Shown: positions 21,768-58,614, numbered from the stretch's first letter. The stretch: 64,000 nt of DNA from Minisyncoccota bacterium (GCA_028711505.1 JAQTSC010000002.1:11936-75935); one strand, 5' to 3'. Numbers and translations: made by a program. Notes: generated by a model not told the origin, from the sequence alone.

Positions 21768-21801
21768 AATTTTATTTTTGATTAAGAGTGCCGCCGTATC
21801 A

Positions 21802-23511: not shown

Positions 23512-23571
23512 AAAATAAAAAATTCAAAATTACTGTCTTGCAGTTTGTAATAGGCGAATCGCGGAAATTTA

Positions 23572-23913
23572 TTATATCCCATTCGCGGGAGCGAAAGGAT
23601 TTTCTCTTCCTATTTTGTCAGGGTAAGGAATGACAGGCGTAAGATCTTTAAGCGCTTTAAAATCAGACCGGCCAAAAAATCCAGTATCAATCTCTATGTT
23701 TCTTATGCGCGTTACTATCTCGACAAAATCCTTGCCTACTATACTTTCGTCAGCAAGAATGGCCGGAGAACCAAGATTTATTGAATCGATTGAAGGCAAA
23801 GCCACGGAGCCCGAAGAACTGCCGCCTTTGAAAAAATTCGCATAAATATAGTAGCTAGCCACAGCCAAAATCGCCAAAGACAGAATAAAAATTAAATTGC
23901 GTTTATTAAACAT
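23572..23913 (-). CDS. hypothetical pilus-assembly-associated protein (PilP-like position)
   Basis: 113 aa with a single N-terminal TM. Position between pilB and pilO-like genes. Confidence 0.3.
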   Translation of the reverse strand: MFNKRNLIFILSLAILAVASYYIYANFFKGGSSSGSVALPSIDSINLGSPAILADESIVGKDFVEIVTRIRNIEIDTGFFGRSDFKALKDLTPVIPYPDKIGRENPFAPANGI

Positions 23914-23924
23914 TTTATCGGTTT

Positions 23925-24479: not shown

Positions 24480-24501
24480 GTGTTTAAGATTTAGATCATT
24501 A

Positions 24502-25119: not shown

Positions 25120-25127
25120 AAAAATTT

Positions 25128-28244: not shown

Positions 28245-28862
28245 ATGTTTGAATTCCTCATAAATTTTTTCGTCAAAATAGTTGAAACTGGAGGCTACCC
28301 CGGAATAGTCTTTTTGATGGCGCTTGAAAGCACGGCAATGCCCTTGCCTAGTGAAGCCATAATGCCTTTTGCCGGATTTCTGTGGTTTCTGGGAAAAATG
28401 TCTTTCGGCTGGATAATTTTTTTCAGCACAATCGGCAGTATCATCGGTTCTCTTCTCTCTTACTTTATAGGCTTTTATGCCGGAGAACCGTTTATTAAAA
28501 AATTCGGAAAATATTTTTTAATAAACGAAGAGCACCTTGAAGCAACCGAAAAATTTTTCAAAAAATTCGGCAGTAAAACGATTTTATTCAGCCGCTTTAT
28601 TCCTGTAATAAGGCACCTGATTTCCCTGCCCGCGGGAATCGGCAAAATGAATCTGCTGAAATTTTCCTCTTATACGATTTTGGGGGCTGGAATATGGAAC
28701 GCGTTTCTTACTTATCTCGGCTACTATCTAGGAGAAAACTGGGCTGAAATAAGAAAATTCAGCGAAATTATCGATATTGCCATTATAATTTTAATACTAG
28801 GAACAGCGGTTTTTCTAATAATGAGAAGGGTAAAAGCGCGGGCTAAAATCAATACTTTATAA
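28245..28862 (+). CDS. DedA/SNARE-associated family membrane protein
   Basis: DedA signature region 'GYPGIVFLMALESTAMPLPSE' and 'FSRFIPVIRHLISLPAG'. Multi-TM. Confidence 0.85.
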   Translation: MFEFLINFFVKIVETGGYPGIVFLMALESTAMPLPSEAIMPFAGFLWFLGKMSFGWIIFFSTIGSIIGSLLSYFIGFYAGEPFIKKFGKYFLINEEHLEATEKFFKKFGSKTILFSRFIPVIRHLISLPAGIGKMNLLKFSSYTILGAGIWNAFLTYLGYYLGENWAEIRKFSEIIDIAIIILILGTAVFLIMRRVKARAKINTL

Positions 28863-29398: not shown

Positions 29399-29809
29399 TC
29401 ACCAATTCAATTCAAGCGCGCGGTCAGCGTTGCCATACCGGCCTGTGGAAATTATAGATCCTTCACCGTCATATTCCGCGCTGCAAGTCGCGCCATTATC
29501 AAGACTGCAGGAAATAGTGGCCGTCAGCCCGTCGTCGCACCCGATGGTTGTTTCCTGGTTTACCTGATAAAAACATTCTTCGGCGCCGGCATCGGCCGCG
29601 TAAAAAGCCACGACAGACTGTCCTGATTGTATCGTCATTTTTATCTGCTGGAACATCAAAACAGACACGCCAAGCCCGATACTCAAAAGCATGCTTAACA
29701 TAAGAAGAGAAAGAAGAATAGAAATAGCTCCTTCTTCTCCGCCTTTCCTGTTTAATTTAAAATTCAATGCCAACCTCCGAAAAAAAGTTTTTTTAACCAT
29801 ATCTGTCAT
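29399..29809 (-). CDS. minor pilin-like protein (hydrophobic N-terminal helix, Cys-rich C-terminus)
   Basis: Basic N-terminus then a hydrophobic helix 'ISILLSLLMLSMLLSIGLGVSVLMF'. Last gene of the minor-pilin operon. Confidence 0.45.
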   Translation of the reverse strand: MTDMVKKTFFRRLALNFKLNRKGGEEGAISILLSLLMLSMLLSIGLGVSVLMFQQIKMTIQSGQSVVAFYAADAGAEECFYQVNQETTIGCDDGLTATISCSLDNGATCSAEYDGEGSIISTGRYGNADRALELNW

Positions 29810-29813
29810 GTTT

Positions 29814-30332
29814 TTATCTTAAAGCCACGGAACTTTGAAGATTAATAACATCCGATCCGCCGCTGCTTCTAACACCGGGTTCAAGTTTAAGAATTATAGT
29901 GACAAACGTCCTGTCTGGAGACGTATAGTCTCTTACATAAAAAGCTCCCGAGACTTTCACTGCGCCTTCCGGGGTCACATCAAAAACAGGGACAGTAGAC
30001 GGCGGTTTATAAAAATAAAGCCCGACATCTCCAAATTTATAGACCAAATTTTCTCCGGCTGAATTCGTAATGTCCAAAGTAGACCCGTCTTCCGAAACAG
30101 AGTTTACGACGCTTGTCCTCAATTCCCTTGTTAAAAATTCCAGAGTATAACGTCCGGTTTCATAAAGGTTTTGGACTAAAAATACTTTGCGCTGAGTTTT
30201 GACCACGGAAATTGAAACAGCCGTGATACTCAAAACAAAAGCGCTGAAAATCGCCAAAGAAACGAGGGTTTCTATAATCGTAAATCCCGCCAAAAATTCA
30301 ATATCCTTCTTTTTTAATGTTTTAAGCTTCAT
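29814..30332 (-). CDS. type IV pilin-like minor pilin
   Basis: Prepilin motif 'LAGFTIIETLVSLAIFSAFVL' (G|FTIIE). Confidence 0.65.
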   Translation of the reverse strand: MKLKTLKKKDIEFLAGFTIIETLVSLAIFSAFVLSITAVSISVVKTQRKVFLVQNLYETGRYTLEFLTRELRTSVVNSVSEDGSTLDITNSAGENLVYKFGDVGLYFYKPPSTVPVFDVTPEGAVKVSGAFYVRDYTSPDRTFVTIILKLEPGVRSSGGSDVINLQSSVALR

Positions 30333-30350
30333 GCTTCAGTTTTAAAATTT

Positions 30351-30875
30351 TTATCTCCATCTCCACAAGCGGTCTTCCACGTTTAAAGTGTGCCACCCTG
30401 TCCGAGCCTGCCATCTTATTTCTGAGACAACCTTTATTTCATCGTTGCTTACCCGGGATAAAATTACCCTTCTGTAAAAAGGCGTGTCCTCTCCCTCCTC
30501 GTATTGATAAAGTCCGAAAGAATTTATTTTCAATGGCGCTTCCGGGTCCGCGCAAGAAGCGTCAATTAGCAAAATACTGTCATGAACAGGGCAATAAATT
30601 TGAGAGCTTCCTATCGGATGCGAATAAGGAGTGGTAGTACTGTACCATTCCCAGCTTCTCCAATCGCCGTTTGATTTTCTTATATCCCTTATTATTTCAA
30701 CCCCCTCCTGCGCCAATCCTGAAGCGATAAGCCGCGACTTGCTGTTTTCAACGGCTTTTAGCGAATAATTAGTCATGTTGAAAACTCCGAATATTCCGAC
30801 AATGGCGATGGACGTCGCCACAATAACTCCAACAAAACTCAATCCTTGATTTTTCGGATGACCGGAATTATTCAT
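30351..30875 (-). CDS. minor pilin-like protein (PilV/PilW-like position)
   Basis: N-terminal hydrophobic helix 'LSFVGVIVATSIAIVGIFGVF'. Within the pilin operon. Confidence 0.45.
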   Translation of the reverse strand: MNNSGHPKNQGLSFVGVIVATSIAIVGIFGVFNMTNYSLKAVENSKSRLIASGLAQEGVEIIRDIRKSNGDWRSWEWYSTTTPYSHPIGSSQIYCPVHDSILLIDASCADPEAPLKINSFGLYQYEEGEDTPFYRRVILSRVSNDEIKVVSEIRWQARTGWHTLNVEDRLWRWR

Positions 30876-30885
30876 AAATTTTATT

Positions 30886-31464
30886 TTATTCCGCCAGAGG
30901 AGTAAGAATATCGACTCCTCCTCCGCTCTTTGCCAATACTATATTATAAGTTATATCCGAACCGCTTCCCGCCCACAGTGTTATGGAGAAACTGGAACCA
31001 AAGGGGTCTTCCGAATTGCCGTCAAAAAAAGTAGTCGGACGCGGCGGCTTAAAAAAAATATCAAAAGAAGAGGGCGGGTACTGATAAGAAATCCCCGAAG
31101 GCAAATAAACAGTTTCTAAAATATAATCCCCCGCGTCATATATGTTATTGCTGGTCGCGCATTCGGGAGACACGTCGGCATAAACAGAATAATAATCTCC
31201 CGACGAAGGAAAGATTATTCCGTATCCGCAATATTGTTCTTTTACGTCAATCCCGCTTATGGCCAAATTTTGAGCCCTTCTTATATCCGAAGCCAAACGC
31301 TGCGCAGCTTGGCTTAAATTGTATTTTTTTTCTCCTTCTTTATAATTAGCCGCGATGATTGCCGTTATTATAGTTATGACAGAAACCACGACCATAAGCT
31401 CAATAAGAGTAAACCCGATCCTCAGAAATCCGGCTTTTTTGTTTTTTGGCAACAGACTCATCAT
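30886..31464 (-). CDS. type IV pilin-like minor pilin
   Basis: Prepilin motif 'KKAGFLRIGFTLIELMVVVSVITIITAIIAA' (G|FTLIE). Confidence 0.7.
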   Translation of the reverse strand: MMSLLPKNKKAGFLRIGFTLIELMVVVSVITIITAIIAANYKEGEKKYNLSQAAQRLASDIRRAQNLAISGIDVKEQYCGYGIIFPSSGDYYSVYADVSPECATSNNIYDAGDYILETVYLPSGISYQYPPSSFDIFFKPPRPTTFFDGNSEDPFGSSFSITLWAGSGSDITYNIVLAKSGGGVDILTPLAE

Positions 31465-31495
31465 TGATTTAATTATACATCATCATAACAAAGTG

Positions 31496-31534
31496 CAAAA
31501 AACATTCCGGCCGCCGATAAGCGCAGCCGGAATG
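31496..31534 (-). terminator. intrinsic terminator after large adhesin-like gene copy B (minus strand)
   Basis: Hairpin CATTCCGGCtgcgcttatcggcgGCCGGAATG followed by TTTTTTG on the minus strand. Part of the duplicated unit. Confidence 0.5.
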
Positions 31535-32155
31535 AAAGAATATCAAGCGTCGGTTGAATTGATTTAAAAAGGAAGTATTTCTTTCCAATTAGGAAGCGGC
31601 CATTTTACTTCCACTGTGCTTAAAAGCGTGCATGATTTTCCGTTTGAATCGGTGATTCTTAAGGAGACTTGTTTTGAGCCTTGGCTTAAAAATGTTGTCA
31701 TCGGGCTTTGTTCTACCGAAGTTCCGGGGGAACCGTCTTGGAATTCCCATACGCGTTCAGTGGTGGAAGCTCCTTCGGTGACCGTTGAACTGTCCGTGAA
31801 TTGAACGACATCGTCTTCGTTGGGCTTGAAAGGAAGCCATGTGTAGACAACGGTCGGGTATTCGACGTAATCCGTGGTAAAAGGAGTTCCGACAATCCAA
31901 TCAGAATGGCCGTTATCGTCATTGTAGACTTTGACGCGCCAATTATACGTTTCTCCGTAGACGAGTTTGTCTGATTCGGGGACATCAATGACGAGAACCT
32001 GCTGTGTATTTATCGTGGGGCTTGGATATGAAAGTCCCGATTGGTTTCTGTCCACTTCAGGCGATAGAAAATCGCTGTTGTTGTCTACCTGCATTTGGAA
32101 TCTTGATTCCGCTTTTTCAAGAGGGTCGGAATACGTCCACGAGAAGGTATGGCGG
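31499..32155. repeat. near-identical direct repeat, copy B (3' end of adhesin gene plus terminator; period 2040 bp)
   Basis: Six-frame ORFs 31616..31804 / 33656..33844 and 31713..31988 / 33753..34028 translate identically. Boundaries approximate. Confidence 0.8.
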
Positions 32156-33522
32156 GCTATATTGCAATATGTGTCAGGACCCGGTTCTGATACAGAGAGG
32201 TCAGTAGCTTCCGGATCTCCGCTTGGAGGCACAAAAGAAGTATTAACCTGATATCCCGAGCCGTTGAAATTCACCCATCCGACGACATCTCCTCCCCATG
32301 CCCAGCCTGACCAATTTCCCGAAGTGTCCATAGTGGCGCCGTAGGCGCCGGGATTCTCTCCTTCATCATATGCCGCAGCCGACGGAGTAAAATTTGAAGT
32401 CCAGCGGGCGATGTCTTTGGAAATTCTAAGTTCGTCAATATAACCATTCACTCCCATATCTCCATTCCAATGCGCTCCGACTCTTAAATCATAATTGCCC
32501 GCGTTTATATTAGTTATAGAAGCATCGGTATAATCAGCGCCCAGCTGAACGCCGTTTACATACATGCGAATCTTTGTTCCGTTTCTCACAAGCGCCAAAT
32601 GATACCAAGTGTGAAGCTGCGCGCTGGTCCAATCTCTCGACATTAAAATTACACTTCCGCTTTTATCGTAAGTGAAGTATAGCGTTCCGTCAGCGTGCCT
32701 CCATAAATTCCAGCCATCCGTGTCTGCCGTTCCCCTGCCTCCTCTTCCGACAAAATTTTGATGAGTATTTATTGAATTTAGATACACCCAAAAATCAACG
32801 GTAAAGTCTCCGCTAAAATCCCAATCGGAACTGTTGGGAGTAGAAAGATAATCTCCGCTGCCGTCAAAAGCGGCGCTGTATCCTCCGAATTTGCTCTGGC
32901 TGGAACTTCTCGCGACATTTCCGTTTGGCGTCATCACATGGGTGAAGGCCGAACTATTCGTCAACCCCATATCATCCATATGCAAAAGCAATTTCGCATA
33001 GCTGTCATTACCTCCAATGCCTCCGCCTCCTGCGGAAGGGTCTCTTAAACTAATCCATCCGTCCCAGCCTCCGCCGTAAGAAAGAGCTCTCGCCCAGCCT
33101 TCTATGGAAAGATTCTCATCTCCTATATCGGCCGGAGAATCAACTCTGGCATCGCAAACGCCCGATGGACAGCCTGAGAGATCAGCCGCGTTAAAAGTTA
33201 TCCATCCGATATTTTCGGACCAGGCAAAACCGGAAAAAATACCAGTGTCCAAATTAAGATTCACTCCGTAGCTGGAGGTTCCGCCTCCGGTCAAATTGTT
33301 AAAACTTATCCATCCGATATTTTCGGACCAGGCGAAACCGGTGGTATTTTGCGCGCTTCCGGCTTCTGCAGGCTCCCAATTCCGCAAAAACATCACGGCG
33401 GAAAAAATAAAAACAACGGAGATTAAAACATTTATTAAAAAACCTAATTTTTCGGATGCCGATTTTTTTATTATGGAAAGATTCATTGTCTTTATTTTAC
33501 GCCAGAAAACGATCAACGGCAA
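31564..33522 (-). CDS. large secreted/anchored adhesin-like protein with repeated 'AWSENIGWISFN' motifs, LamG/ConA-like lectin domain insertion, and C-terminal PKD-like domain (copy B)
   Basis: N-terminal signal-anchor. Tandem 'GFAWSENIGWI(S/T)FN' repeats. Central ~230 aa with a LamG-like pattern (DFTVDFWV...WYHLALVRNG...MYVNGV...GYIDELRI). C-terminal 'WEFQDGSPGT...' PKD-like beta-sandwich. Confidence 0.55.
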   Translation of the reverse strand: MPLIVFWRKIKTMNLSIIKKSASEKLGFLINVLISVVFIFSAVMFLRNWEPAEAGSAQNTTGFAWSENIGWISFNNLTGGGTSSYGVNLNLDTGIFSGFAWSENIGWITFNAADLSGCPSGVCDARVDSPADIGDENLSIEGWARALSYGGGWDGWISLRDPSAGGGGIGGNDSYAKLLLHMDDMGLTNSSAFTHVMTPNGNVARSSSQSKFGGYSAAFDGSGDYLSTPNSSDWDFSGDFTVDFWVYLNSINTHQNFVGRGGRGTADTDGWNLWRHADGTLYFTYDKSGSVILMSRDWTSAQLHTWYHLALVRNGTKIRMYVNGVQLGADYTDASITNINAGNYDLRVGAHWNGDMGVNGYIDELRISKDIARWTSNFTPSAAAYDEGENPGAYGATMDTSGNWSGWAWGGDVVGWVNFNGSGYQVNTSFVPPSGDPEATDLSVSEPGPDTYCNIARHTFSWTYSDPLEKAESRFQMQVDNNSDFLSPEVDRNQSGLSYPSPTINTQQVLVIDVPESDKLVYGETYNWRVKVYNDDNGHSDWIVGTPFTTDYVEYPTVVYTWLPFKPNEDDVVQFTDSSTVTEGASTTERVWEFQDGSPGTSVEQSPMTTFLSQGSKQVSLRITDSNGKSCTLLSTVEVKWPLPNWKEILPF

Positions 33523-33535
33523 ACCTGTTGTGGAT

Positions 33536-33574
33536 AATAAAACATTCCGACCGCCGATAAGCGCAGCCGGAATG
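33536..33574 (-). terminator. intrinsic terminator after adhesin-like gene copy A (duplicate of 31496..31534 with one stem mismatch)
   Basis: CATTCCGaCC...GGCCGGAATG hairpin plus a T-rich tract on the minus strand. Confidence 0.4.
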
Positions 33575-34195
33575 AAAGAATATCAAGCGTCGGTTGAATT
33601 GATTTAAAAAGGAAGTATTTCTTTCCAATTAGGAAGCGGCCATTTTACTTCCACTGTGCTTAAAAGCGTGCATGATTTTCCGTTTGAATCGGTGATTCTT
33701 AAGGAGACTTGTTTTGAGCCTTGGCTTAAAAATGTTGTCATCGGGCTTTGTTCTACCGAAGTTCCGGGGGAACCGTCTTGGAATTCCCATACGCGTTCAG
33801 TGGTGGAAGCTCCTTCGGTGACCGTTGAACTGTCCGTGAATTGAACGACATCGTCTTCGTTGGGCTTGAAAGGAAGCCATGTGTAGACAACGGTCGGGTA
33901 TTCGACGTAATCCGTGGTAAAAGGAGTTCCGACAATCCAATCAGAATGGCCGTTATCGTCATTGTAGACTTTGACGCGCCAATTATACGTTTCTCCGTAG
34001 ACGAGTTTGTCTGATTCGGGGACATCAATGACGAGAACCTGCTGTGTATTTATCGTGGGGCTTGGATATGAAAGTCCCGATTGGTTTCTGTCCACTTCAG
34101 GCGATAGAAAATCGCTGTTGTTGTCTACCTGCATTTGGAATCTTGATTCCGCTTTTTCAAGAGGGTCGGAATACGTCCACGAGAAGGTATGGCGG
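33539..34195. repeat. near-identical direct repeat, copy A
   Basis: See copy B. The 5' ends of the two genes (about 33060-33540 vs 34420-34900) are also similar but more diverged. Confidence 0.8.
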
Positions 34196-34878
34196 GCGGT
34201 ATTGCAGTACGTATCGGAGCTTGGCGAGGAAACCGTAAGATCGATAGCTTTCGGATTGATATCCACCGGCACAAAAGAAGTATTAACCTGATATCCCGAG
34301 CCGTTGAAATTCACCCACCCGACGACATCTCCTCCCCATGCCCAGCCTGACCAATTTCCCGAAGTGTCCATAGTGGTGCCGTAGGCCTCTCCGCTATCTT
34401 TCAAACTAATCCATCCGTCCCAGCCTCCGCCGTAAGAAAGAGCTTTCGCCCAGCCTTCTATGGCAACTGTTTCCTTTCCTATTTTATTTGGCAAAGCGAC
34501 TCTGGCATCGCAAACGCCCGATGGACAGCCTGCGAGATCAGCCGCGTTAAAACTTATCCATCCGATATTTTCGGACCAGGCAAAACCGGAAAAAATACCG
34601 GTGTCCAAATTAAGATTCACTCCGTAATCGGAAGTGCCGCCTCCGGTCAAATTATTAAAACTTATCCATCCGATATTTTCGGACCAAGCGAAACCGGTGG
34701 TATTTTGCATATTTCCAGCGTTTACGGATTTCGAATTTAGAAGAAACATCGCTCCCGAAAAAATAATCGCAACGGAGATTAAAACATTTATTGAAAAACT
34801 AAATTTTTCGGATGCCGATTTTTTTATTATGGAAAGATTCATTGTCTTTATTTTACGCCAGAAAACGGTCAACGGCAA
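33604..34878 (-). CDS. adhesin-like paralog lacking the LamG-like insertion (copy A)
   Basis: The first ~150 aa and the C-terminal ~230 aa are near-identical to 31564..33522. The lectin-like middle region is absent. Confidence 0.55.
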   Translation of the reverse strand: MPLTVFWRKIKTMNLSIIKKSASEKFSFSINVLISVAIIFSGAMFLLNSKSVNAGNMQNTTGFAWSENIGWISFNNLTGGGTSDYGVNLNLDTGIFSGFAWSENIGWISFNAADLAGCPSGVCDARVALPNKIGKETVAIEGWAKALSYGGGWDGWISLKDSGEAYGTTMDTSGNWSGWAWGGDVVGWVNFNGSGYQVNTSFVPVDINPKAIDLTVSSPSSDTYCNTARHTFSWTYSDPLEKAESRFQMQVDNNSDFLSPEVDRNQSGLSYPSPTINTQQVLVIDVPESDKLVYGETYNWRVKVYNDDNGHSDWIVGTPFTTDYVEYPTVVYTWLPFKPNEDDVVQFTDSSTVTEGASTTERVWEFQDGSPGTSVEQSPMTTFLSQGSKQVSLRITDSNGKSCTLLSTVEVKWPLPNWKEILPF

Positions 34879-40520: not shown

Positions 40521-40593
40521 TAATATTTTTGGATGTGCCAGGACTCGAACCTGGAACCATCGAGGTATAAGCTCGAAGCTCTGCCAATTGAGC
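40521..40593 (-). tRNA. tRNA-Ile with UAU anticodon (by manual fold)
   Basis: Reverse complement folds as GGATGTG-TA-GCTC-AATTGGCA-GAGC-T-TCGAG-CTTATAC-CTCGA-TGGTT-CCAGG-TTCGAGT-CCTGG-CACATCC-A. Confidence 0.7.
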
Positions 40594-40611
40594 TACACAT
40601 CCCCCCTTATT

Positions 40612-44516: not shown

Positions 44517-44588
44517 GGCCAGGTAGCCAAGTGGTAAGGCAAGGGTCTGCAAAACCCTTACACGCGGGTTCAATTCCCGCCCTGGCCT
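44517..44588 (+). tRNA. tRNA-Cys (GCA)
   Basis: GGCCAGG acceptor, anticodon loop CTGCAAA, T loop TTCAATT. Confidence 0.85.
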
Positions 44589-44626
44589 CAAGCCATAGAG
44601 CATTTGAAAACAGAAATTTAGCCATT

Positions 44627-44708
44627 GCTCGGGTGGCGGAATTGGTATACGCGCACGACTTAAAATCGTGTCTCGCAAGAGATGCGGGTTCGACCCCCGC
44701 CCCGAGCA
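44627..44708 (+). tRNA. tRNA-Leu (TAA)
   Basis: GCTCGGG acceptor, anticodon stem CACGA/TCGTG with loop CTTAAAA, long variable arm, T loop TTCGACC. Confidence 0.85.
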
Positions 44709-44713
44709 TAAAC

Positions 44714-44797
44714 GGGCGAGTGGCGGAATTGGCAGACGCGTAAGGTTTAGGACCTTATGGGAGAAATCCTGTGGGAGTTCAACTCTCCCCTCGCCCA
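44714..44797 (+). tRNA. tRNA-Leu (TAG)
   Basis: GGGCGAG acceptor, anticodon loop TTTAGGA, long variable arm, T loop TTCAACT. Confidence 0.85.
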
Positions 44798-44818
44798 TTG
44801 GATATTGAAAAATTTTAA

Positions 44819-44889
44819 GCGGCCATGGTTTAGTGGCAGGACGGCTCCTTGCCAAGGAGCAGGTGGGAGTTCGATTCTCCCTGGCCGCA
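44819..44889 (+). tRNA. tRNA-Gly (GCC)
   Basis: GCGGCCA acceptor, anticodon loop TTGCCAA, T loop TTCGATT. Confidence 0.85.
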
Positions 44890-45155
44890 CCCTTCAATAA
44901 ACTCAGGGTAAACAAAATGAAACTTTTGGCGCTCCAACCACGCTGGAAATATTTAGGATTTCACATACTTCGAAAGTTCAAACATCGTTACACCCCCTGC
45001 ACAAGGAATGTATGGCCTTGATAATAGCGACAGCCGATTTTCGTTGAAAATAAATAATCTTTTGTTGGCCAAACAGAAGTCTTAACTAAATCTTGACTTT
45101 TTTGTTTGGCAATGTATAATGGTAGAGGAAAATCAAACCTTGAAAGGAGAAAAAA

Positions 45156-45383
45156 ATGTCAGAAGGAGCCATAATTTTTGCGTTGGCAATATGTCTTTTG
45201 ATAGGATTTCCTTTATGCCTCTTTTTTTGGCCGCGGCTTATGAATAAATGCCCGAGGTGCGGAAGCAGATTAACTTACACCAAAATTTCAACAGTTCCTG
45301 CTCCAGGCTTAGAAACACAGTTTTTGGGAATCCGCCAGAAACAAATTGAACATCTTTTTTGTATAAAAAGGCATGGACAGTAG
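45156..45383 (+). CDS. hypothetical small membrane protein with CxxC motif
   Basis: 75-aa ORF with a strong SD (AAAGGAGAAAAAAATG), an N-terminal TM, and 'CPRCG'. Confidence 0.35.
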   Translation: MSEGAIIFALAICLLIGFPLCLFFWPRLMNKCPRCGSRLTYTKISTVPAPGLETQFLGIRQKQIEHLFCIKRHGQ

Positions 45384-45750: not shown

Positions 45751-46068
45751 ATGCTAAACATGATAAGGAAACGGCTAGGAGCAAAGAAAGAAGAAAATTT
45801 GCCCGCGATGGAAACAAAAGAAAAAACATTTGAACAGATGAAAGTTGTGTGCAGAACGGCGAAAAATTTTATTGATGCCTTGGAAGAGCTTGAGGAATTG
45901 CATTTTTGCAAATGCGGAGAGCTGTTTCTCTGCCGCCACAAAAAGTGTCCGGAATGCGGAGAACCGAATCCGAAATACAGACCTTTCGCTGGCAAAGACC
46001 AGGAAAGGGCGGAAAACATGGCTGAAGCGGCGCTCGATAAACTTCGCGCCGCATGCAAAGCTTTATAG
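45751..46068 (+). CDS. hypothetical small zinc-ribbon-like protein
   Basis: Strong SD (AAAAAGGAGGGGCTATG). 'CKCGELFLCRHKKCPECGEP' has 4-6 Cys in a ribbon-like arrangement. Followed by a terminator. Confidence 0.45.
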   Translation: MLNMIRKRLGAKKEENLPAMETKEKTFEQMKVVCRTAKNFIDALEELEELHFCKCGELFLCRHKKCPECGEPNPKYRPFAGKDQERAENMAEAALDKLRAACKAL

Positions 46069-46097
46069 TCTTACCTCCACGGATACCACAAGCAGGA

Positions 46098-46352: not shown

Positions 46353-47708
46353 ATGAAATCAAGGATATGGAATAAACTGATTTCTTTTCTTCTGCGGATG
46401 GGATCAATAACATGGAAATGGCCCTCCTTTTTTCGAAAAAGAAAAGAGGATGATAAAGAAAGGGAAAAAGAAAATGACAAAGAGAAAAAATTAAGTATTG
46501 GAATAATTTCTTTTCTTCTGCGGATGGGATCTTTCTACCTTATCTGGAGGGGATGCCAAATAATCCCCGTGGATTCGATTTTCAAAGGAACATCTTACAG
46601 CGGCGGGTATATTGAATTAATTTTTGTCGTAGCAATAACATGGTTTCTCCCTTGCGGAATTTTTTACGGAGCCTGGAGAAATCTGCCCGCTGAACCGCCA
46701 ACAGCAGGACTTATCACCATTTTTGGCATGAGAACTTGCTTATTTACGGTAAACGGCTGGACTTTTTTACCCTTATACCCTTTTCTCTTCGGCATAATCG
46801 CCTTTGACATGAGAGTCCGCGCCGAACAATTGCCTGAACAGGACGTAAGAACTCCGGATCAAGCCGAATCAAAAATTACTGGAGTAATTTCCTGGAAACC
46901 CGACCCGAAAAATCTTCGAAATTTTCAAAACGTGGGCGGAGCTAAAGGAGCGGTAGAAAATTTGTTTAACATATGGACAAGCACTATAAGACAATGGGCC
47001 GCTTCGCCCGAAGAAGGTCCTGCGGGTTATATGGAACTTCTGGCCGCCCAATGGGAAGCGGTAAACAGGCTTCTTAAAAAAATGGCTCCTATGTCTTTAT
47101 GCAAGATTGATTCAGAAATTCCCACGATAGCTCTTTTCAGATATTTTGCCGAGCCCCGAAAACCGCTTACGGAAAATCTGAAAAAACTCTACTCAAGTGA
47201 CGGAAAAAGCGAGGATTGGGCTAAGCTTGAAGAAAAGCTGAAAGAAAGCAAAAAAGAAGATCTGATAAAAAAACAGGTAGAAAACCGGGAAGAAGATATT
47301 GAGGCAGTCAGACAAGGCAAAGGAAATTTCCGGAAACCAGAGCTGGGAATAATTATTACACAGCTGGATATCGGAAAAGTCGTCCCGTTTGGAGAACTCG
47401 CAAAATCAATGGAAAAAGAGGCGATGGAACAGAGAGAAAGGGCTGCTGAAAAAGTCCAGGTATTGAATGTCAACGAGAGAAGCAGTGAGCTTATGGAAGC
47501 AGTGGTAAAAGACGAGAACGGAAAAACAAAAACAATACCCACCGGCAGAACAAGAAAACAAGCTGACGAGATTGTCATGATCCAGCAAAAAAAGATTCAA
47601 AAATCTGTCAAAGAAGTTCAAATCTCTTTAACGCCGGAAAGCCAAGACGCAATTTCTGCAATCGTTGGCGGAATCGTTAGAGCGGTAAAGGAGGTAAAAA
47701 ATGGCTGA
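46353..47708 (+). CDS. hypothetical membrane protein with duplicated N-terminal amphipathic segment and long C-terminal coiled-coil
   Basis: 'ISFLLRMGS' encoded twice (nt 46376-46401 and 46507-46532), hydrophobic segments at residues ~80-150, and a Lys/Glu-rich C-terminal half. Confidence 0.5.
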   Translation: MKSRIWNKLISFLLRMGSITWKWPSFFRKRKEDDKEREKENDKEKKLSIGIISFLLRMGSFYLIWRGCQIIPVDSIFKGTSYSGGYIELIFVVAITWFLPCGIFYGAWRNLPAEPPTAGLITIFGMRTCLFTVNGWTFLPLYPFLFGIIAFDMRVRAEQLPEQDVRTPDQAESKITGVISWKPDPKNLRNFQNVGGAKGAVENLFNIWTSTIRQWAASPEEGPAGYMELLAAQWEAVNRLLKKMAPMSLCKIDSEIPTIALFRYFAEPRKPLTENLKKLYSSDGKSEDWAKLEEKLKESKKEDLIKKQVENREEDIEAVRQGKGNFRKPELGIIITQLDIGKVVPFGELAKSMEKEAMEQRERAAEKVQVLNVNERSSELMEAVVKDENGKTKTIPTGRTRKQADEIVMIQQKKIQKSVKEVQISLTPESQDAISAIVGGIVRAVKEVKNG

Positions 47709-48189
47709 TAAAAAAGAAAAGCCGGAAGAGAAACCGGTAGTTATAGGAAAGCTTCCCTCTTCGCTTTGGTGGTTTATAGTTTTAATTTGCCTTGCTGTGT
47801 TCTTTCAAAGGGCATACTTAATCCATGCAGCAAGAACAGGAGAAGAAAAAAGGAAAGAGAAAACACAAGCTGTCATTCCTCATTTCGCCAGCACCGGTGT
47901 CTTGAAATGGAAACATTCCGGTAAAATAAATCCGGAGCAACGACGCGAGGCGAACATAACGGTTGCCGCAAATCGGACGCGAACCGACATGATTCTGGAA
48001 CGCAAAGGGGTGGGCAGATTTGAGGGAAAATCCCTTGACGGAATCGTGTATGAAGGAAGTTGGACGGGAGCGGACCGGCATGGCGGCAAGTTTAAACTGG
48101 TCTTTGATTCTCCAAACCATGCCATAGGCTGGCATGAAGACTCGGAGACAAAAGAAAAAATCCCCACTACCTTTTCACTTAATGGATAG
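47701..48189 (+). CDS. hypothetical membrane-anchored protein
   Basis: ATG overlaps the stop of the upstream gene (ATGGCTGA), indicating translational coupling. Single TM. Confidence 0.5.
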   Translation: MADKKEKPEEKPVVIGKLPSSLWWFIVLICLAVFFQRAYLIHAARTGEEKRKEKTQAVIPHFASTGVLKWKHSGKINPEQRREANITVAANRTRTDMILERKGVGRFEGKSLDGIVYEGSWTGADRHGGKFKLVFDSPNHAIGWHEDSETKEKIPTTFSLNG

Positions 48190-48204: not shown

Positions 48205-48239
48205 AAAAGGGGTTCGTGTTAAACACGAACCCCTTTTTC
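48205..48239. terminator. bidirectional intrinsic terminator between convergent operons
   Basis: AAAAGGGGTTCGTG-ttaaa-CACGAACCCCTTTTT: a perfect 10-bp stem flanked by an A-run and a T-run. Confidence 0.65.
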
Positions 48240-48264: not shown

Positions 48265-48717
48265 TCACCAATCGGAATAATCCATGTAAGTGTCTGAATT
48301 ATCCTCTTCGGGCGGATTCCAATAATAGTAATCGGCGGAATAATCTCCCGTTGCGTCATATCCGTAATCGTAATAAGTGTCTGAAGGGCTTTGCCCGAAA
48401 ACCGTGTCCTGTAAAATCCGGATAAGCCCCCAAAAAGAAAGCAAGACAAAAAATCCTATAAGCCCGTATATCAGAAAATTTTTAGCCGATTTTCTTTTTT
48501 CGGGATTATTCGCCGTGGTGATGTATCTGAGAACTCCGAAAATAAAAACCACAGACGCGACAAGCCATAAAAGCTGTATTATCTGAAGCACGATGTCCGT
48601 GCCTCTTTCAAAAACTTCCTTAACAGAAGCTGCTGCGGCAAAAAAAGGCAAAAGAAAACAAACAGCGCACAAAGGCAAAAATACGGAGTACGATTTTATG
48701 TTTTTCCCAAAGGACAT
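48265..48717 (-). CDS. small secreted two-TM protein, VirB2/TrbC-like paralog 5, with Tyr/Asp-rich C-terminal tail
   Basis: Signal peptide 'MSFGKNIKSYSVFLPLCAVCFLLPFFAAAAS', TM1, charged loop 'NNPEKRKSAKN', and TM2 'LIYGLIGFFVLLSFWGLI'. Tail 'DTYYDYGYDATGDYSADYYYW'. The longer listed ORF start overlaps the upstream gene. Confidence 0.5.
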   Translation of the reverse strand: MSFGKNIKSYSVFLPLCAVCFLLPFFAAAASVKEVFERGTDIVLQIIQLLWLVASVVFIFGVLRYITTANNPEKRKSAKNFLIYGLIGFFVLLSFWGLIRILQDTVFGQSPSDTYYDYGYDATGDYSADYYYWNPPEEDNSDTYMDYSDW

Positions 48718-48956
48718 CAAAATGAATCGACAAAATTTTGAATAATCATAAGCACGCCCTGACTGGAAATCATCAAAGCCATTCCAATTAAACCCCACGC
48801 CAGATGCTGTTTCCCTTTTTTTCTCTTCTCTTCGTTATCGGCCGAATAAATCATTTCAACCACGCCATAGATAAAAACCATAATAGCCACCGCGAAAATA
48901 AAAATCACGAATGGCTGTATGGCTTCTTCTATAATGGTGTTTATAACTTTATCCAT
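48717..48956 (-). CDS. small two-TM protein, VirB2/TrbC-like paralog 4 (no signal peptide)
   Basis: TM1 'FVIFIFAVAIMVFIYGVV', loop 'NEEKRKKGKQH', and TM2 'LAWGLIGMALMIS'. Confidence 0.45.
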   Translation of the reverse strand: MDKVINTIIEEAIQPFVIFIFAVAIMVFIYGVVEMIYSADNEEKRKKGKQHLAWGLIGMALMISSQGVLMIIQNFVDSF

Positions 48957-48974
48957 TATATGAGTTTTCGGTTA

Positions 48975-49328
48975 TTAGAGGCTAATGTCAGGAAAATTCG
49001 GACTGCCTCCTGTCTGGATACCGAAAGTATCGGCAAAAATCTGGATTATTCCCCAGAAAGCGACCATAACGAAAATTCCGATAAGTCCGTAGATGATAAG
49101 CCCTCTTGCTTTCTTCTCATTCGCTTCATCTCCTCCGGCAGTAACGTATTTCACTATGCCCCACAAAAACACCGCGACGGCGAGAAGCATGAAAAGCGGA
49201 ATAATCCCGTTCGCCAAACTTTTAAGCGTATCAAGAATAGATTCAAGGTCTGAGGCGGCGAAAGCGCAAAGCGGCGCAAATCCCACAATTGCCGGAATAA
49301 ACGGAGAAAATCTGGATAATTTTTTCAT
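48975..49328 (-). CDS. small secreted two-TM protein, VirB2/TrbC-like paralog 3
   Basis: Signal peptide ending AFAAS, TM1 'IIPLFMLLAVAVFLWGIV', loop 'GGDEANEKKARG', and TM2 'LIIYGLIGIFVMVAFWGII'. Confidence 0.5.
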   Translation of the reverse strand: MKKLSRFSPFIPAIVGFAPLCAFAASDLESILDTLKSLANGIIPLFMLLAVAVFLWGIVKYVTAGGDEANEKKARGLIIYGLIGIFVMVAFWGIIQIFADTFGIQTGGSPNFPDISL

Positions 49329-49398
49329 ATTATGATTTTTAATTGATAATTTTAATGATTCTTTTTTTCGACCTTATTTTAAAATTTGACTGCGATTA

Positions 49399-49782
49399 TT
49401 AAAGTTTTTGCGCGAAATCCGATACTGCCGCCGCTATAGCGTAAGCGCCCAAAAGCACCGCCGCGCCGATTACCGCGTAATAAAAAGTGCTTCTAGCCTT
49501 TTTAAGCTGCTCAGTATCGCCGCGCGCCGTGGTAAAAAGAAACCCGGACCAAATTACCATAAGGGCCGCGATTATACTTCCTATTTTAGCGACAAGCGCG
49601 GTAATTTTTTTGACAATGACTGAAAAATCAGAAGTGCCTATGGGGTTTTCAAGCCCGGTACCCCCGCTACTTTCGCCAAAACCGACAGCCTCGCAAACAG
49701 CAAATACCGGCAGAAAAATCAAAACCGCCAGCAAAAACGCCGGAAACAAGCAGTTCATATTTTTATACAAGAATACTTTCAT
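49399..49782 (-). CDS. small secreted two-TM protein, VirB2/TrbC-like paralog 2
   Basis: Long signal peptide, TM1 'IGSIIAALMVIWSGFLF', loop 'TARGDTEQLKKARS', and TM2 'TFYYAVIGAAVLLGAYAIA'. Confidence 0.5.
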   Translation of the reverse strand: MKVFLYKNMNCLFPAFLLAVLIFLPVFAVCEAVGFGESSGGTGLENPIGTSDFSVIVKKITALVAKIGSIIAALMVIWSGFLFTTARGDTEQLKKARSTFYYAVIGAAVLLGAYAIAAAVSDFAQKL

Positions 49783-49804
49783 CTTCTCTTAAAATAATTT
49801 TAAC

Positions 49805-50215
49805 CTAAAGCGAGCAGGAAGGAAACTGGTTCCACGATTTATACAGACTGAACCCGGGGTCAAGCAGAAAACCAAGTATCGTATTGATTACGGCGTAAGC
49901 CGCGAAAGCGATAACAATGCCGGTTGCCGTAAATTTAAAAATGTTTTTCCCTTTCTCAATTTGGCTTGAATTATCTCCTCCCGTCATAAAAATAATTCCC
50001 GCCGCGGCAAAAGACAAAACGGACAAAGGCAAAACTATATTAAAAGCAAGAAATTTTACAAGATTGCCCGCAAGCTCGGCAAACTTGCAAAAATCGCACG
50101 CAGGCTGTCCCGCGCCGCCGCAAGGCACTATCTTTGCCGCTCCAGCCAAAAGAGGAAACATCAAGAAAAAAACAGTCAAGATGTTTACTCCCAAAATTTT
50201 TATATTTCTCCCCAT
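49805..50215 (-). CDS. small secreted two-TM protein, VirB2/TrbC-like paralog 1 (Cys-rich N-terminal segment); start taken at internal Met
   Basis: Signal peptide, 'CGGAGQPACDFC', TM1 'LAFNIVLPLSVLSFAAAGIIF', loop 'GGDNSSQIEKGKN', and TM2 'TATGIVIAFAAYAVI'. Confidence 0.45.
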   Translation of the reverse strand: MGRNIKILGVNILTVFFLMFPLLAGAAKIVPCGGAGQPACDFCKFAELAGNLVKFLAFNIVLPLSVLSFAAAGIIFMTGGDNSSQIEKGKNIFKFTATGIVIAFAAYAVINTILGFLLDPGFSLYKSWNQFPSCSL

Positions 50216-50228
50216 TGCTCCTCTATGT

Positions 50229-51536
50229 TTATTCCAATTTATCCATCTCTTCCGCCAAAAGGATTTTGGCGTCGCGGATTGCCGAAGAAACATTTTTCTT
50301 TCCGCTCACCACCGAATCAACCATGTTTTTAAAAATCAAAGAAACTGCCGAAGGATCGGGTTCAAGCCACGACTTTGAACGTATGGCTGCTTTGTAAAAT
50401 GTTTCCATAAAAGGATTATCCTCAACTCCTTGTCCTGAACTTAAAAGGGCTCTTTTAACCGGAGGCAAATAAAGATTCTCTTCTATCATCTTTTGAACTT
50501 CGTCCGAGCTGAAAACCGAAGCCGCCAAAAAGGCCTTGGAAGCGTTTGCGGTCGATTTCGAAACCGCCATAACGTAAACACGGCCGAAAGTAGACTGGGT
50601 TGCCGAATCTTTGACCTGCGGGACTTGATAAACATCAAAATTCAGATGGGGGTTTTTACGGACAATTTCCCTCGCTTCGCTCGCGTATCCAAAATACACG
50701 GCAAGTTTTCCTGACACAAAAAAATCAATGTCCTCCGGCAGCGCCCTGTTCCATGAATAAGAAATCTTTGTCGGATTTGAAAAACTCGTGAAAAAATTCA
50801 AAGCGCTCGCCGCGGGGTCAACCGACGAGTCCCCTCTCTCTCCGAAAGAAAGCTTGTTTGTTTCCGGATCAATAATTTTATTCCCTGTCTGGAGAAGAAG
50901 GAGCGAAAAAACTTCTTTGGCGTTTTTTATGTTGGAAAATTCGCCCATTGCTCCGCCCGACTTCAAAATATTTCCCGACTCGTCTTTTTCCGTCATGGCT
51001 CGCGATTGATTTAAAAATCCGTCCCAGGTCGCCGACGGGTTCGCTATGGCGGCTTTTGAAAAAATATCTTTGTTCCAATACAAAACCAGGGGATCAACAC
51101 AAAAAGGCATTCCGGCAATGCCGTCTTTTTTCATAAAAAGAAATCCGCTGTCTACAAAAGTATCCCGAAACGTCCTTTCGCTTAAAGATTCATAGGGTAT
51201 AAAAAATGCCTTGCTTCCGTGCTTCAAAAGAAGGTCCTGAGGCAAAAACCATAAATCGGGGCCGGTGCCCGAAGCTATGGCATTAACAAGTTCGGTTTCG
51301 TAAGTGGCAGGGTCTTTTTCATAATATTTTATGGAAAAAGACTTTTGGTTCTCGGAATTGACCGCGTCAATTATCCTGCCCCACGAATCTTCGGAAAACA
51401 CTCCCCACATAGTAAGGTCTGCGGGGGGTTCCGAACTTTGGCCGGGAAGCCACGGTAAAATTCCCGACAAAACGAGAAAAGATAAAAGAACCAAAGCTCC
51501 TATTGCGCCGTAAAGCGCTATTTGAAATTTAGACAT
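50229..51536 (-). CDS. extracellular solute-binding protein (ABC transporter SBP family 1-like), orphan
   Basis: N-terminal signal-anchor and a ~400-aa periplasmic-binding-protein type II-like sequence. No adjacent permease or ATPase genes. Confidence 0.6.
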   Translation of the reverse strand: MSKFQIALYGAIGALVLLSFLVLSGILPWLPGQSSEPPADLTMWGVFSEDSWGRIIDAVNSENQKSFSIKYYEKDPATYETELVNAIASGTGPDLWFLPQDLLLKHGSKAFFIPYESLSERTFRDTFVDSGFLFMKKDGIAGMPFCVDPLVLYWNKDIFSKAAIANPSATWDGFLNQSRAMTEKDESGNILKSGGAMGEFSNIKNAKEVFSLLLLQTGNKIIDPETNKLSFGERGDSSVDPAASALNFFTSFSNPTKISYSWNRALPEDIDFFVSGKLAVYFGYASEAREIVRKNPHLNFDVYQVPQVKDSATQSTFGRVYVMAVSKSTANASKAFLAASVFSSDEVQKMIEENLYLPPVKRALLSSGQGVEDNPFMETFYKAAIRSKSWLEPDPSAVSLIFKNMVDSVVSGKKNVSSAIRDAKILLAEEMDKLE

Positions 51537-51541
51537 ATTTT

Positions 51542-52096
51542 TTAAAAAACTTTTTTGTAAACGCCGGTGTCGGGCTTTATAAACGCCATTCCGTAATGGC
51601 TGTCTCCGGCGTCAAAACTTTTTAGAAATTCAAAACCCGCTCCGGAAAAAAGCGCCCGCAAATCTTCTTCGCCGGTTCTCAGGCTTGGAGGAGGGCCAAT
51701 GCCGACAACAGACAATTTCCATTCCACTGCCGCTATTTTTCCTCCGGGACGCAAAATTCTAAACGCTTCTCTTATCGCCGCTCCCTTATCTTCCATCTGA
51801 AAAAGCGAATTGGAAATCAGCACAAAATCAACAAGAGAATCCGCGAGCCCTGTGCCTTTTTCTTTTTCCAAATCAACGCGGCTGAATTGCGCATTGGTAA
51901 TGCCTTCAACCAAAAGTTTGCTCTTTAACGCTTCAAGCACTTCTTTCTGTATGTCAAAAGTATAAACAATCCCGCTTCTTCCCACTCTTCTCGCCATCTC
52001 GCCCGTAAAATGGCCCGAGCCGCAACCAAAATCAGCAACCTTCATGCCGGGTCTCAAATCCAAATCAGCTATTATTTTCGCGGGATTCAAAAACAT
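51542..52096 (-). CDS. class I SAM-dependent methyltransferase
   Basis: Motif I 'VADFGCGSGHFT', post-I acidic 'TFD', and motif 'RILRPGG'. Confidence 0.8.
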   Translation of the reverse strand: MFLNPAKIIADLDLRPGMKVADFGCGSGHFTGEMARRVGRSGIVYTFDIQKEVLEALKSKLLVEGITNAQFSRVDLEKEKGTGLADSLVDFVLISNSLFQMEDKGAAIREAFRILRPGGKIAAVEWKLSVVGIGPPPSLRTGEEDLRALFSGAGFEFLKSFDAGDSHYGMAFIKPDTGVYKKVF

Positions 52097-52174
52097 TTGT
52101 TTTCCTTTTTCTTAAATTCTAACACAAAAAAAGGGCGGAAAAACCGCCCGGGTGTGCATAAGAATTTAATTTTT

Positions 52175-57681: not shown

Positions 57682-58614
57682 CTATTTCCTTACTATTTGG
57701 AATTGACCGTCATAACCTTTGTGCGATACTACATCGCCGCCCAAAGGAGAAACAACGGCCAGAATTTTTCCAACCATCTCCACATCAGCAGGATTATCCT
57801 TCTGGCACGAACCGCCAACAAAGAGATAATCCCCGTAGACGCCCAGTTGCAACTTACGGTCGCTTCCACTTGCGCGAACATCCGCTACGGCGACCGCAAC
57901 CGCTTTTGACCACTCCAACCACTCTTTCGGCAAATCAATGACATAAATTCTACCACCAAAATAAAGGTTGGGGTGCGTTACCTTTACGGCGGCTTTAAGC
58001 GTTTCGCTCTCCTGATATTTTCGCTCTTGACGAAGGCGAGCAGATTCGTCAATCGCCTTTGCCAATTTTCGCAACCTTTCAACCTCCGGCAAAGGCATGT
58101 CTAATCCCCAGACATCCCCAAGATAATTATGGGAATTGTCTTGAGAAGTGACTCCTTCGTGACCAACAACCTTATCGGCCACTTTGCCAAAGAAAACATC
58201 TTCCCATCCTTCCGCAAAACGAAACCTGAAAGGCGAAGAAGATGTCCCTGTGGCTGAGGGGATGGATTGGATATTTACCCGACCGCTGTTTTTTAGACAA
58301 GCAGTCATGCCCTTTGCCCAGCGACCGCCGGACCCAATCCACGCGCCCGGAGCGACCGTTTTGATAATCAGGTCGCGGCCCCGTGTTTCAAGCCGGAACA
58401 CGCTTCCGGCAAAAAGACGGGGATTAGCCAAGATAAAATCAGCTAACTCCGCCGGGGTACAAGAATTTCTCTCACCCCACCCGAAAGCCCAAGACTTTCG
58501 GGTGGACGTACGGTCCATCCCGATTTTGACGTATTGCGCCTCATCGGGCTCATTGTCGCTACCCCAATGGCCGTGGGATGTAATCATAAACTTGCCATCC
58601 AATATCTTTTTCAT
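57682..58614 (-). CDS. hypothetical protein in GC-rich island (310 aa)
   Basis: Long ORF in a locally GC-rich (~55%) segment with no family recognised by eye. The strand choice is supported only by the longest ORF. Confidence 0.4.
   Translation of the reverse strand: MKKILDGKFMITSHGHWGSDNEPDEAQYVKIGMDRTSTRKSWAFGWGERNSCTPAELADFILANPRLFAGSVFRLETRGRDLIIKTVAPGAWIGSGGRWAKGMTACLKNSGRVNIQSIPSATGTSSSPFRFRFAEGWEDVFFGKVADKVVGHEGVTSQDNSHNYLGDVWGLDMPLPEVERLRKLAKAIDESARLRQERKYQESETLKAAVKVTHPNLYFGGRIYVIDLPKEWLEWSKAVAVAVADVRASGSDRKLQLGVYGDYLFVGGSCQKDNPADVEMVGKILAVVSPLGGDVVSHKGYDGQFQIVRK

Follow-up and report, generated by a model that had tools for sequence, protein, structure and literature searches.

TrbC/VirB2 pilins are characterized in part by polymerization into an extracellular pilus with phospholipid through the action of VirB4. 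Here we describe five adjacent genes for VirB2-like pilins (g5, g4, g3, g2, and g1, from the first to the last) in a 64-kb stretch from the genome of an ultra-small Minisyncoccota bacterium (GCA_028711505.1, JAQTSC010000002.1:11936-75935; hereafter the window, with positions counted from its first nucleotide), and compare them with what has been published on pilin arrays of Patescibacteria.

When 3,035 Patescibacteria assemblies were searched with PF04956 (TrbC/VirB2) and PF18895 (T4SS_pilin), 383 of them proved to carry pilin arrays, 441 in total and each of 2-11 genes, with a mean identity of 25% and the highest abundance in Microgenomatia and Saccharimonadia (Quinonero-Coronel et al. 2025, Microb Genom; PMC12102498). 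A VirB4 was identified for 2,407 of the 3,035 assemblies, and the pilin genes were often distant from virB4 (PMC12102498). In Southlakia epibionticum, a cultured Saccharibacterium, transposon sequencing showed that a predicted pilin series within its type IV secretion system (T4SS) cluster is essential for epibiotic growth (Wang et al. 2023, Cell; PMC10633639). A 2025 review named pilin arrays a distinctive feature of the Patescibacteria T4SS (PMC12857230), and in cultured Paceibacteria the five signal-peptide genes with the highest expression include T4SS pilins (PMC10936435).

The array in the window is a further example of these already described arrays of VirB2-like pilins. As in the published definition, it consists of at least two tandem PF18895/PF04956 genes with low mutual identity in a Patescibacteria genome, here a metagenome-assembled genome (MAG) of 'Candidatus Pacebacteria'. 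The original prediction, which was made from the sequence of the window, had considered an uncharacterized family as one option; this can be set aside, as the family is catalogued in Pfam and its arrays in Patescibacteria have been published and are essential in one species. The part worth pursuing is the conserved operon of a methyltransferase, a solute-binding protein (SBP), and ordered pilins, together with the hydrolase fusions of the first pilin, both of which are unmentioned in the literature reviewed.

Five Adjacent Genes Encode Two-Helix Pilins

Five adjacent pilin-type open reading frames (ORFs) occupy positions 48265-50215 of the minus strand:

49805-50215, minus strand: g5, first pilin of the array, 136 aa; ATG at 50215 preceded by AGAGGAG
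49399-49782, minus strand: g4, second pilin, 127 aa
48975-49328, minus strand: g3, third pilin, 117 aa
48717-48956, minus strand: g2, fourth pilin, 79 aa
48265-48717, minus strand: g1, last pilin, 150 aa; also 150 aa according to an independent gene caller

Gene models were set by start-codon context, overlap with neighbors, and an independent gene call. All five consecutive minus-strand genes named in the original prediction are present, but the length of 162 aa given for the first of them had to be corrected to 136 aa because the 162-aa ORF (to 50293) runs into the 3' end of the SBP gene.

Hydropathy analysis (Kyte-Doolittle windows) and inspection of the sequences revealed a common build in all five proteins, that is, two hydrophobic helices around a K/R/E-rich loop of 10-14 residues, which agrees with the predicted architecture; the loops quoted at that time are also present. 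Four of the five (g5, g4, g3, and g1) have an N-terminal hydrophobic segment, again as predicted, and were read from the sequence as having Sec-type signal peptides, in which a basic n-region and a hydrophobic stretch precede an AxA-type site. The signal segments end in AGAA↓K (g5), VCEA↓V (g4), AFAA↓S (g3), and AAAA↓S (g1). The conserved start of the second helix that had been proposed is clear in g3 (IIYGLIG), g1 (LIYGLIG), and g2 (LAWGLIG) but degenerate in g4 (FYYAVIG) and g5 (FKFTATG). Pairwise identity among the five pilins is 15-38%, in line with the low identity noted previously.

Family Assignment of the Five Pilins

To assign the proteins to families, the gathering cutoffs of PF18895 (26.6 bits), PF04956 (27.9 bits), and NCBIfam NF045849 (40 bits) were used. 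The PF18895 threshold is exceeded by g1-g4 (31.8-39.6 bits), and g5 falls slightly below it. None of the five reaches the gathering score of PF04956, against which the original prediction had proposed a HMMER check, but g4 and g5 give near-full-length sub-threshold matches; the other three have no match. Together with the PF04956 matches of 18 of 36 g5 orthologs, these scores bear out the VirB2/TrbC-like pilin call. All matches to NF045849 (37.5 bits for g2, 31.1 for g1, 23.9 for g3, and 17.8 for g4) are below the curated cutoff. The array is not a chance feature because every protein matches one Pfam family (E-values from 5e-10 to 2e-5) and has orthologs, arranged in the same order, in >150 loci of other genomes. 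The PF18895-type pilin family is very large: in a library of 1.84 billion proteins, its profile has matches to 58,803 representative clusters (E <= 1e-3).

Type IV pilins (T4P) were considered and rejected, as the five proteins lack a class III leader (G↓(F/M)xxxE; no GFTLIE), and their N-termini are type I Sec-like.

The g5 protein consists of a Sec signal peptide, the motif VPCGGAGQPACDFC, the two-helix pilin domain, and a C-terminal tail with a Cys. Two Cys residues directly after the signal peptide are invariant across 36 orthologs. The scores of g5 itself are 24.9-25.5 bits for PF18895 and 24.0-24.6 bits for TrbC. All 36 orthologs match PF18895 (E <= 1e-3, best 1.8e-12), and for the 18 that match TrbC/VirB2 the best E-value is 1.5e-8.

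In g4, the signal peptide is followed by a Gly/Ser-rich mature N-terminus. This protein scores 31.8 bits for PF18895 and 22.5 bits for TrbC (E-value 1.4e-4), and g4-type orthologs occupy the second array position in most related loci.

The most conserved type is g3 (38.5 bits for PF18895), for which 85 homologs with identities of up to 70% were found. It is identical to the NCBI protein PHC85_01545 from the 'Candidatus Pacebacteria' MAG. Its AlphaFold2 (AF2) model is a helical hairpin with a core pLDDT of >90, and 1-4 copies of this type are present per array in related loci. It is a candidate for the major subunit of the array.

The g2 protein contains only the two helices and lacks a signal peptide. 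It scores 37.7 bits for PF18895, and all 32 g2 orthologs examined match NF045849 (best E-value 6e-12); most of them are 77-82 aa long and leaderless. Judging from the profile scores, the kinship of g2 to NF045849 is real, yet below the equivalog level. The AF2 model of g2, computed from an alignment of the window paralogs and g3 homologs, is a hairpin of helices H2-37 and H42-78 with a pLDDT of 89.

The last protein, g1 (39.6 bits for PF18895), combines a signal peptide with an Asp/Tyr-rich C-terminal tail of 45 aa that ends in DTYYDYGYDATGDYSADYYYWNPPEEDNSDTYMDYSDW (48265-48400, minus strand). Orthologs of the g1 type are present in the closest relatives with variable tails: the Asp/Tyr-rich tail is absent from all five orthologs examined, whose tails are Pro-rich or otherwise different.

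The Pilin Types Are Ordered and Appear to Be Ancient

For comparison, we used 82 loci found via the g3-type pilin and 80 loci found independently via the SBP (about 160 in all). Homologs of g3 nearly always lie in a same-strand array, with 3-9 pilin ORFs in 81 of 88 clusters (mode 4-5). Based on best-hit typing, the types follow each other in the order g5, g4, g3 (1-4 copies), g2, and sometimes g1, and this order is monotonic in 68 of 78 loci. Furthermore, 93% of 413 pilin ORFs are closer to a pilin of another genome than to the paralogs of their own array. The types also differ in build, with the Cys pair of g5, the absence of a leader in g2, and the variable tails of g1.

Sequence comparison thus indicates that the five paralog types are ancient and in fixed order, which argues against recent diversification. 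The original prediction had taken the low identity between the paralogs as a sign of diversification, an interpretation that does not agree with the cross-genome best matches and the conserved order. Synonymous sites are saturated because even GyrA is only 60-75% identical in the nearest available relatives.

Fused and Concatenated Pilins in Related Loci

The first (g5-type) pilin is extended at its C-terminus by an SLT, SLT-like, or LAS-like (zinc-peptidase-like) domain in 16 related loci (examples: L013:6328-7455, L051:8726-9892, L023:4092-5219, L017:8596-9513, L021:8681-9553, L029:6474-7490, and L022:5330-6325). The SLT lytic transglycosylase fusions match PF01464 with E-values from 5e-18 to 7e-22, and the SLT-like domains carry a GLFQIN motif. 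The third type has the motif H...SxH..G..D...H, and its best PDB matches are to the LAS-fold N-domain of Sonic hedgehog with a marginal E-value of 0.008. From its domain composition, a hydrolase-fused first pilin would amount to a VirB2-VirB1-like fusion. In addition, one related pilin protein has an N-terminal Big_5 Ig-like domain. Fusions at both ends require that both termini be outside the cell and therefore fit a basic loop on the inside.

The top family matches include proteins in which Gly/Thr/Pro linkers connect 2-8 tandem pilin domains within one chain (P0088, P0094, and P0105). One polypeptide with six matched pilin domains (L167:1777-3435) lies inside an ordinary pilin array.

A Conserved Block with a Solute-Binding Protein and a Methyltransferase

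Two further genes directly upstream of the pilins and two probable terminators, one at each end, outline a putative transcription unit:

52133-52149, minus strand: probable terminator between gyrA and the methyltransferase-SBP-pilin unit; G+C hairpin and then T7, directly past the gyrA stop (terminator scan)
51542-52096, minus strand: class I S-adenosylmethionine-dependent methyltransferase, 184 aa; Pfam Methyltransf_31, _11, and _25; ends 5 nt before the SBP gene
50229-51536, minus strand: membrane-anchored MalE-type (family 1) SBP, 435 aa; Pfam SBP_bac_8 and SBP_bac_1; ends 13 nt before g5
48205-48237, no strand assigned: probable terminator of the array transcript, between g1 and a convergent 162-aa gene; 15-bp stem with 7 G-C pairs and a T-run (terminator scan and sequence)

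The gaps from the methyltransferase through SBP, g5, g4, g3, and g2 to g1 are 5, 13, 22, 70, 18, and -1 nt, the ATG of g1 sharing 1 nt with the stop codon of g2. This tight spacing and the 1-nt overlap imply that the pilins are co-expressed. The five pilins probably share a transcript with the upstream methyltransferase and the membrane-anchored SBP, and the methyltransferase is the probable first gene of the unit. We know of no role for such a methyltransferase with VirB2-type pilins.

A profile of 27 SBP orthologs matches PDB 4r9f ('MBP1') over its full length with an E-value of 1e-25, and the protein carries an N-terminal membrane anchor. No ATP-binding cassette (ABC) permease or ATPase partner for the SBP was found in the window, and no permease recurs in the flanks of the related loci.

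The order gyrA, methyltransferase, SBP, and pilins is conserved. In the pilin-ascertained loci, the SBP is immediately upstream in 69, and the methyltransferase and gyrA are present in 65 and 62, respectively; the block is kept even where GyrA identity drops to 48%. Conversely, a pilin ORF starts within 400 nt downstream in 62 of 67 evaluable SBP-ascertained loci. The linkage of SBP and array holds in both directions. Their pairing is apparently unreported: PMC12102498 contains no mention of the gyrA/SBP neighborhood, of a fixed paralog order, or of hydrolase fusions.

In a Lloydbacteria MAG (L019:5678-7516) and a Parcubacteria MAG (L065:1805-3692), an array of the order g4-g3-g3-g2 is located at another chromosomal site, without the g5 type and without SBP. 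The block can therefore be split or duplicated.

Possible Function of the Array

In our view there is about an even chance that the five proteins are co-expressed and co-assembling VirB2-like subunits of a T4SS-related surface filament or conduit, built by a VirB4 machine elsewhere and used at host contact. According to this model, g5, g4, g3, and g1 would be exported by Sec and cleaved after the AxA site, and g2 would be inserted leaderless. All five would form helical hairpins in the cytoplasmic membrane, their two termini on the outer side and the K/R-rich loop on the inner side, a topology suggested by the K/R-rich loops and by the extracytoplasmic domains that relatives carry at the N-terminus (Big_5) or the C-terminus (SLT, LAS-like). 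The paralogs would then join in a single surface structure, either a short filament or a conduit; in the favored version, a VirB4-type T4SS encoded elsewhere in the genome would extract and polymerize them. The g3 type may be the bulk subunit, the g5 type a specialized first, tip, or initiator subunit with a disulfide-capped N-terminus (hydrolase-bearing in relatives, where it may act on peptidoglycan), and the g2 type a leaderless base or adaptor subunit. The structure might work at the contact with the host cell.

Co-assembly appears preferable to alternative use of the paralogs because the types are ancient and in fixed order and because polypeptides with 2-8 pilin domains exist, one of them inside an array. 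A link to T4SS is suggested by several lines of evidence: SLT is the domain type of VirB1; the essential published arrays lie within the T4SS cluster of S. epibionticum (PMC10633639, PMC12857230); VirB4 is common in Patescibacteria assemblies and often far from the pilin genes (PMC12102498); and T4SS pilins are highly expressed in cultured Paceibacteria (PMC10936435). The option of machinery located elsewhere, raised by the original prediction, also fits published counts, in which only 1135 of 1948 Patescibacteria assemblies have the pilin gene close to virB4 (PMC12102498).

On the other hand, a number of observations weigh against a VirB4-built filament. Searches of the PDB by sequence and by profile, for which the g3-family profile, g5, and g4 served as queries, reach no solved VirB2, TraA, or TrbC chain, the best hits being chance hydrophobic matches, and fold searches are non-specific for a helical hairpin. 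Classical conjugative pili use a single VirB2-type pilin, and nothing known to us accounts for the need of five pilin types. No filament of these proteins is reported for any Patescibacterium in the literature reviewed. Pfam and hydrophobicity scans found no VirB4, VirB6, or VirD4 in the 64-kb window or in the 3.5 kb past its left end. The Pfam scan covered 40 window ORFs, among them every ORF of at least 250 aa except RecA and those overlapping an annotated gene on the opposite strand; the only unassigned polytopic ORF in the hydrophobicity scan (28245-28862, 205 aa, three transmembrane-like peaks) lies outside the Pfam scan. For the ORFs checked, the predicted absence of VirB4, VirB6, and VirD4 from the window thus holds. 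The related claim that no secretion ATPase is nearby is correct for the T4SS type, but PilB and a PilT-like ATPase are encoded in the window, in a T4P cluster about 25 kb away. Rather than VirB3/B4/B5/B6, the genes of a mating-pair-formation (MPF) neighborhood, the array has gyrA, the methyltransferase, and SBP as upstream neighbors and genes for an SPFH-domain protein, IF-2, FtsH, and RecG downstream. In the flanks (up to 10 kb) of the 82 pilin-ascertained loci, the ORFs that recur or are largest include no VirB4; ORFs were clustered at minimum lengths of 400 aa and 110 aa and the representatives scanned with Pfam, the flanks of the 80 SBP-ascertained loci being outside this screen. The representatives were ClpB, PolA, P-type ATPases, PheT, IleS, PrkA, and similar proteins. 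Finally, of nine array-bearing relatives in Table S1 of PMC12102498, all of them drafts, five were scored as having VirB4 and four, including an assembly of 1.17 Mb, as lacking it.

These observations leave room for a T4SS-independent complex of the envelope, an explanation that we regard as possible though somewhat unlikely. The hairpins would remain embedded in the cytoplasmic membrane, form a hetero-oligomeric ring or raft there, and anchor extracellular modules (the tails and, in relatives, the hydrolase domains) beside the tethered SBP, and the complex would attack or sense host wall glycan and capture the products. Such a role would fit the linkage of SBP and array in both directions (69 pilin-ascertained loci; 62 of 67 SBP-ascertained loci), although the neighborhood, in which gyrA is conserved too, could reflect vertical inheritance without functional coupling. 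It would also fit a MalE-type oligosaccharide binder with no ABC partner in the window, the hydrolase-type domains (SLT, SLT-like, or LAS-like) on the first pilin in 16 loci, and the polytopic proteins with 2-8 fused hairpins. The fold matches, too, include hairpin rings, for example ATP-synthase subunit c. Against such a complex stands the homology to T4SS pilins (PF18895, TrbC, and the pilin-like protein of a Mycoplasma integrative and conjugative element [ICE]); in addition, tethered subunits could still polymerize, as pilin termini are on the outside of conjugative pili. No VirB4 was seen beside the array in the screened pilin-ascertained loci and it was scored absent in four of the nine relatives, but VirB4-negative draft MAGs may be merely incomplete, and in the only genetically studied Patescibacterium the pilin array lies within the T4SS cluster. 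In a bolder form of this idea, which we consider distinctly unlikely, the methyltransferase/SBP/ordered-pilin operon would encode a self-contained envelope apparatus, present across Paceibacteria and without a VirB4 motor, and would not be a mere store of parts for the VirB4 T4SS. A hetero-oligomer of five ancient VirB2-derived hairpin types, in some cases covalently concatenated and in others tipped with a peptidoglycan hydrolase, would act with the tethered oligosaccharide-binding protein to breach the host wall and capture what is released. Conjugative pilins would in this case have been exapted for nutrient acquisition.

The paralogs might instead be alternative major pilins, one used at a time, that alter surface properties or host range. 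This idea is present in the literature, where an analogy of Patescibacteria arrays to the VirB2 paralogs of Bartonella and Anaplasma was drawn (PMC12102498), and it would agree with the low identity within the array (15-38%) and with the variation in g3-type copy number between genomes (1-4). We consider it very unlikely, since most pilin ORFs (93% of 413) are closer to orthologs across Paceibacteria than to paralogs of their own array, the type order is fixed in 68 of 78 loci, the architectures differ (Cys cap, missing leader, added tails), covalently fused multi-pilin proteins exist, and the tight spacing and 1-nt overlap imply co-expression. Size and the two-helix pattern alone would also suit membrane-permeabilizing or protective proteins, namely holins, bacteriocins, or immunity proteins. 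The original prediction held that strong hits to such a family, together with a lack of VirB2-family similarity, would overturn the pilin call; none of the five proteins matches a holin or bacteriocin family in Pfam, NCBIfam, or PHROGs, so the call stands, and the weak PHROG matches of the array proteins are to unknown-function families throughout (E-values 0.014-0.08). Moreover, an endolysin, a prophage context, a double-glycine leader, and a C39-peptidase ABC exporter are all missing, housekeeping genes make up the flanks, and the chromosomal position is conserved across a whole bacterial class. This last explanation is close to refuted.

Other Features of the Window

The window is chromosomal and rich in housekeeping genes, including those for FtsK, RecA, ligase, and HisRS; within 3.5 kb beyond its left end are genes for S6, YchF, and phosphoglucomutase. 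A complete T4P cluster is located at 17451-26264 and 29399-34878 (both minus strand), encoding PilD, PilC, a PilT-like ATPase, PilB, PilO, a 205-aa PilN-like ORF, and PilM. The two ATPases are:

21802-23511: PilB, T4P cluster, about 25 kb from the array
20178-21254: PilT-like ATPase, T4P cluster

Prepilin-type ORFs lie at 29399-31464, two of them with clear leaders (GFTLIELMVV, 30886-31464, and GFTIIETLVS); pilins of T4P with the GFTLIE-type leader motif span 29814-31464. Two Laminin_G/PKD surface proteins (652 and 424 aa) accompany this cluster. The T4P cluster is a system separate from the pilin array.

Downstream of the array, the stretch 46353-48189 (plus strand) holds two overlapping genes that are convergent with the array. 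One encodes a 451-aa protein that matches SPFH/Band-7 weakly and in which an N-terminal segment, 'ISFLLRMGS', is duplicated; the other encodes a 162-aa protein with a single transmembrane segment and no family match. The SPFH gene was considered as a part of the system and rejected, as a homolog (L009, L011) or another SPFH gene (a five-locus cluster, L066) is found downstream in only about seven related loci, with weak similarity. Two small ORFs with zinc-ribbon-like CxxC...CxxC motifs (45157-45382 and 45752-46069, plus strand) are located between a tRNA cluster (44517-44891) and the SPFH gene; this 1.5-kb stretch is absent from the closest syntenic relatives. A predicted tRNA-Ile with the anticodon TAT was found at 40530-40602 (minus strand). 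Such tRNAs are uncommon in bacteria, in which AUA is usually read by a lysidine-modified CAU tRNA. An ORF of 310 aa (57682-58614, minus strand) has no Pfam match and no hydrophobic segments.

Significance and Comparison with Known Systems

Patescibacteria, which represent a large part of bacterial diversity, live in attachment to other microbes, and their means of host attachment and feeding are largely obscure. Few envelope features have been shown to be essential in a cultured member, and VirB2-like pilin arrays are one of them. The present locus brings no new kind of system but offers several leads: the paralogs appear to be ancient, ordered, and probably co-assembled rather than variants; the array is tied to an orphan oligosaccharide-binding protein across a class; and the first subunit can bear a putative wall-lytic enzyme. 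If the SBP and hydrolase associations are functional, they may hint at the job of the structure at the host interface.

Several known systems resemble the array to different degrees. The minor pilins of T4P and the pseudopili of type II secretion share only its logic, that is, ancient, non-interchangeable, and ordered paralogs forming one filament with a specialized tip; they belong to an unrelated protein family and machinery, and their G↓FxxxE class III leader is missing here. The archaeal conjugation and DNA-import pilins (Aeropyrum pernix pilus, PDB 8dfu) are counted among the closest known systems. The TrbC/VirB2/TraA pilins of diderm T4SS (PF04956) have in common with the five proteins a signal peptide (in all but g2), two hydrophobic helices, a short basic loop, and a helical hairpin; in contrast, scores here are below the gathering level, there is no adjacent VirB3/B4/B5/B6, five types are present instead of one, and the host is thought to be monoderm.

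The Mycoplasma ICE protein Mbov_0395/MMCAP2_0565 (NF045849) resembles g2 in being a leaderless two-helix protein of about 80 aa. Mycoplasma and Patescibacteria hosts are both wall-poor or monoderm, and their T4SS belong to the MPF-FATA lineage, to which the Patescibacteria VirB4 has been assigned (PMC12102498). Unlike the Mycoplasma protein, g2 is chromosomal rather than ICE-borne, is one member of a five-member array, and scores just under the curated cutoff.

The array of S. epibionticum is essential and lies within a T4SS cluster, whereas the present one is located amid housekeeping genes, in a unit with the methyltransferase and SBP and with no VirB4 in the window. The closest likeness in layout is with the published Patescibacteria arrays as a whole: these are likewise tandem, same-strand PF18895/PF04956 two-helix pilins in genomes of the candidate phyla radiation, without a relaxase context; their low identity (25% on average) compares with 15-38% here, and their size range of 2-11 genes covers the five of this locus.

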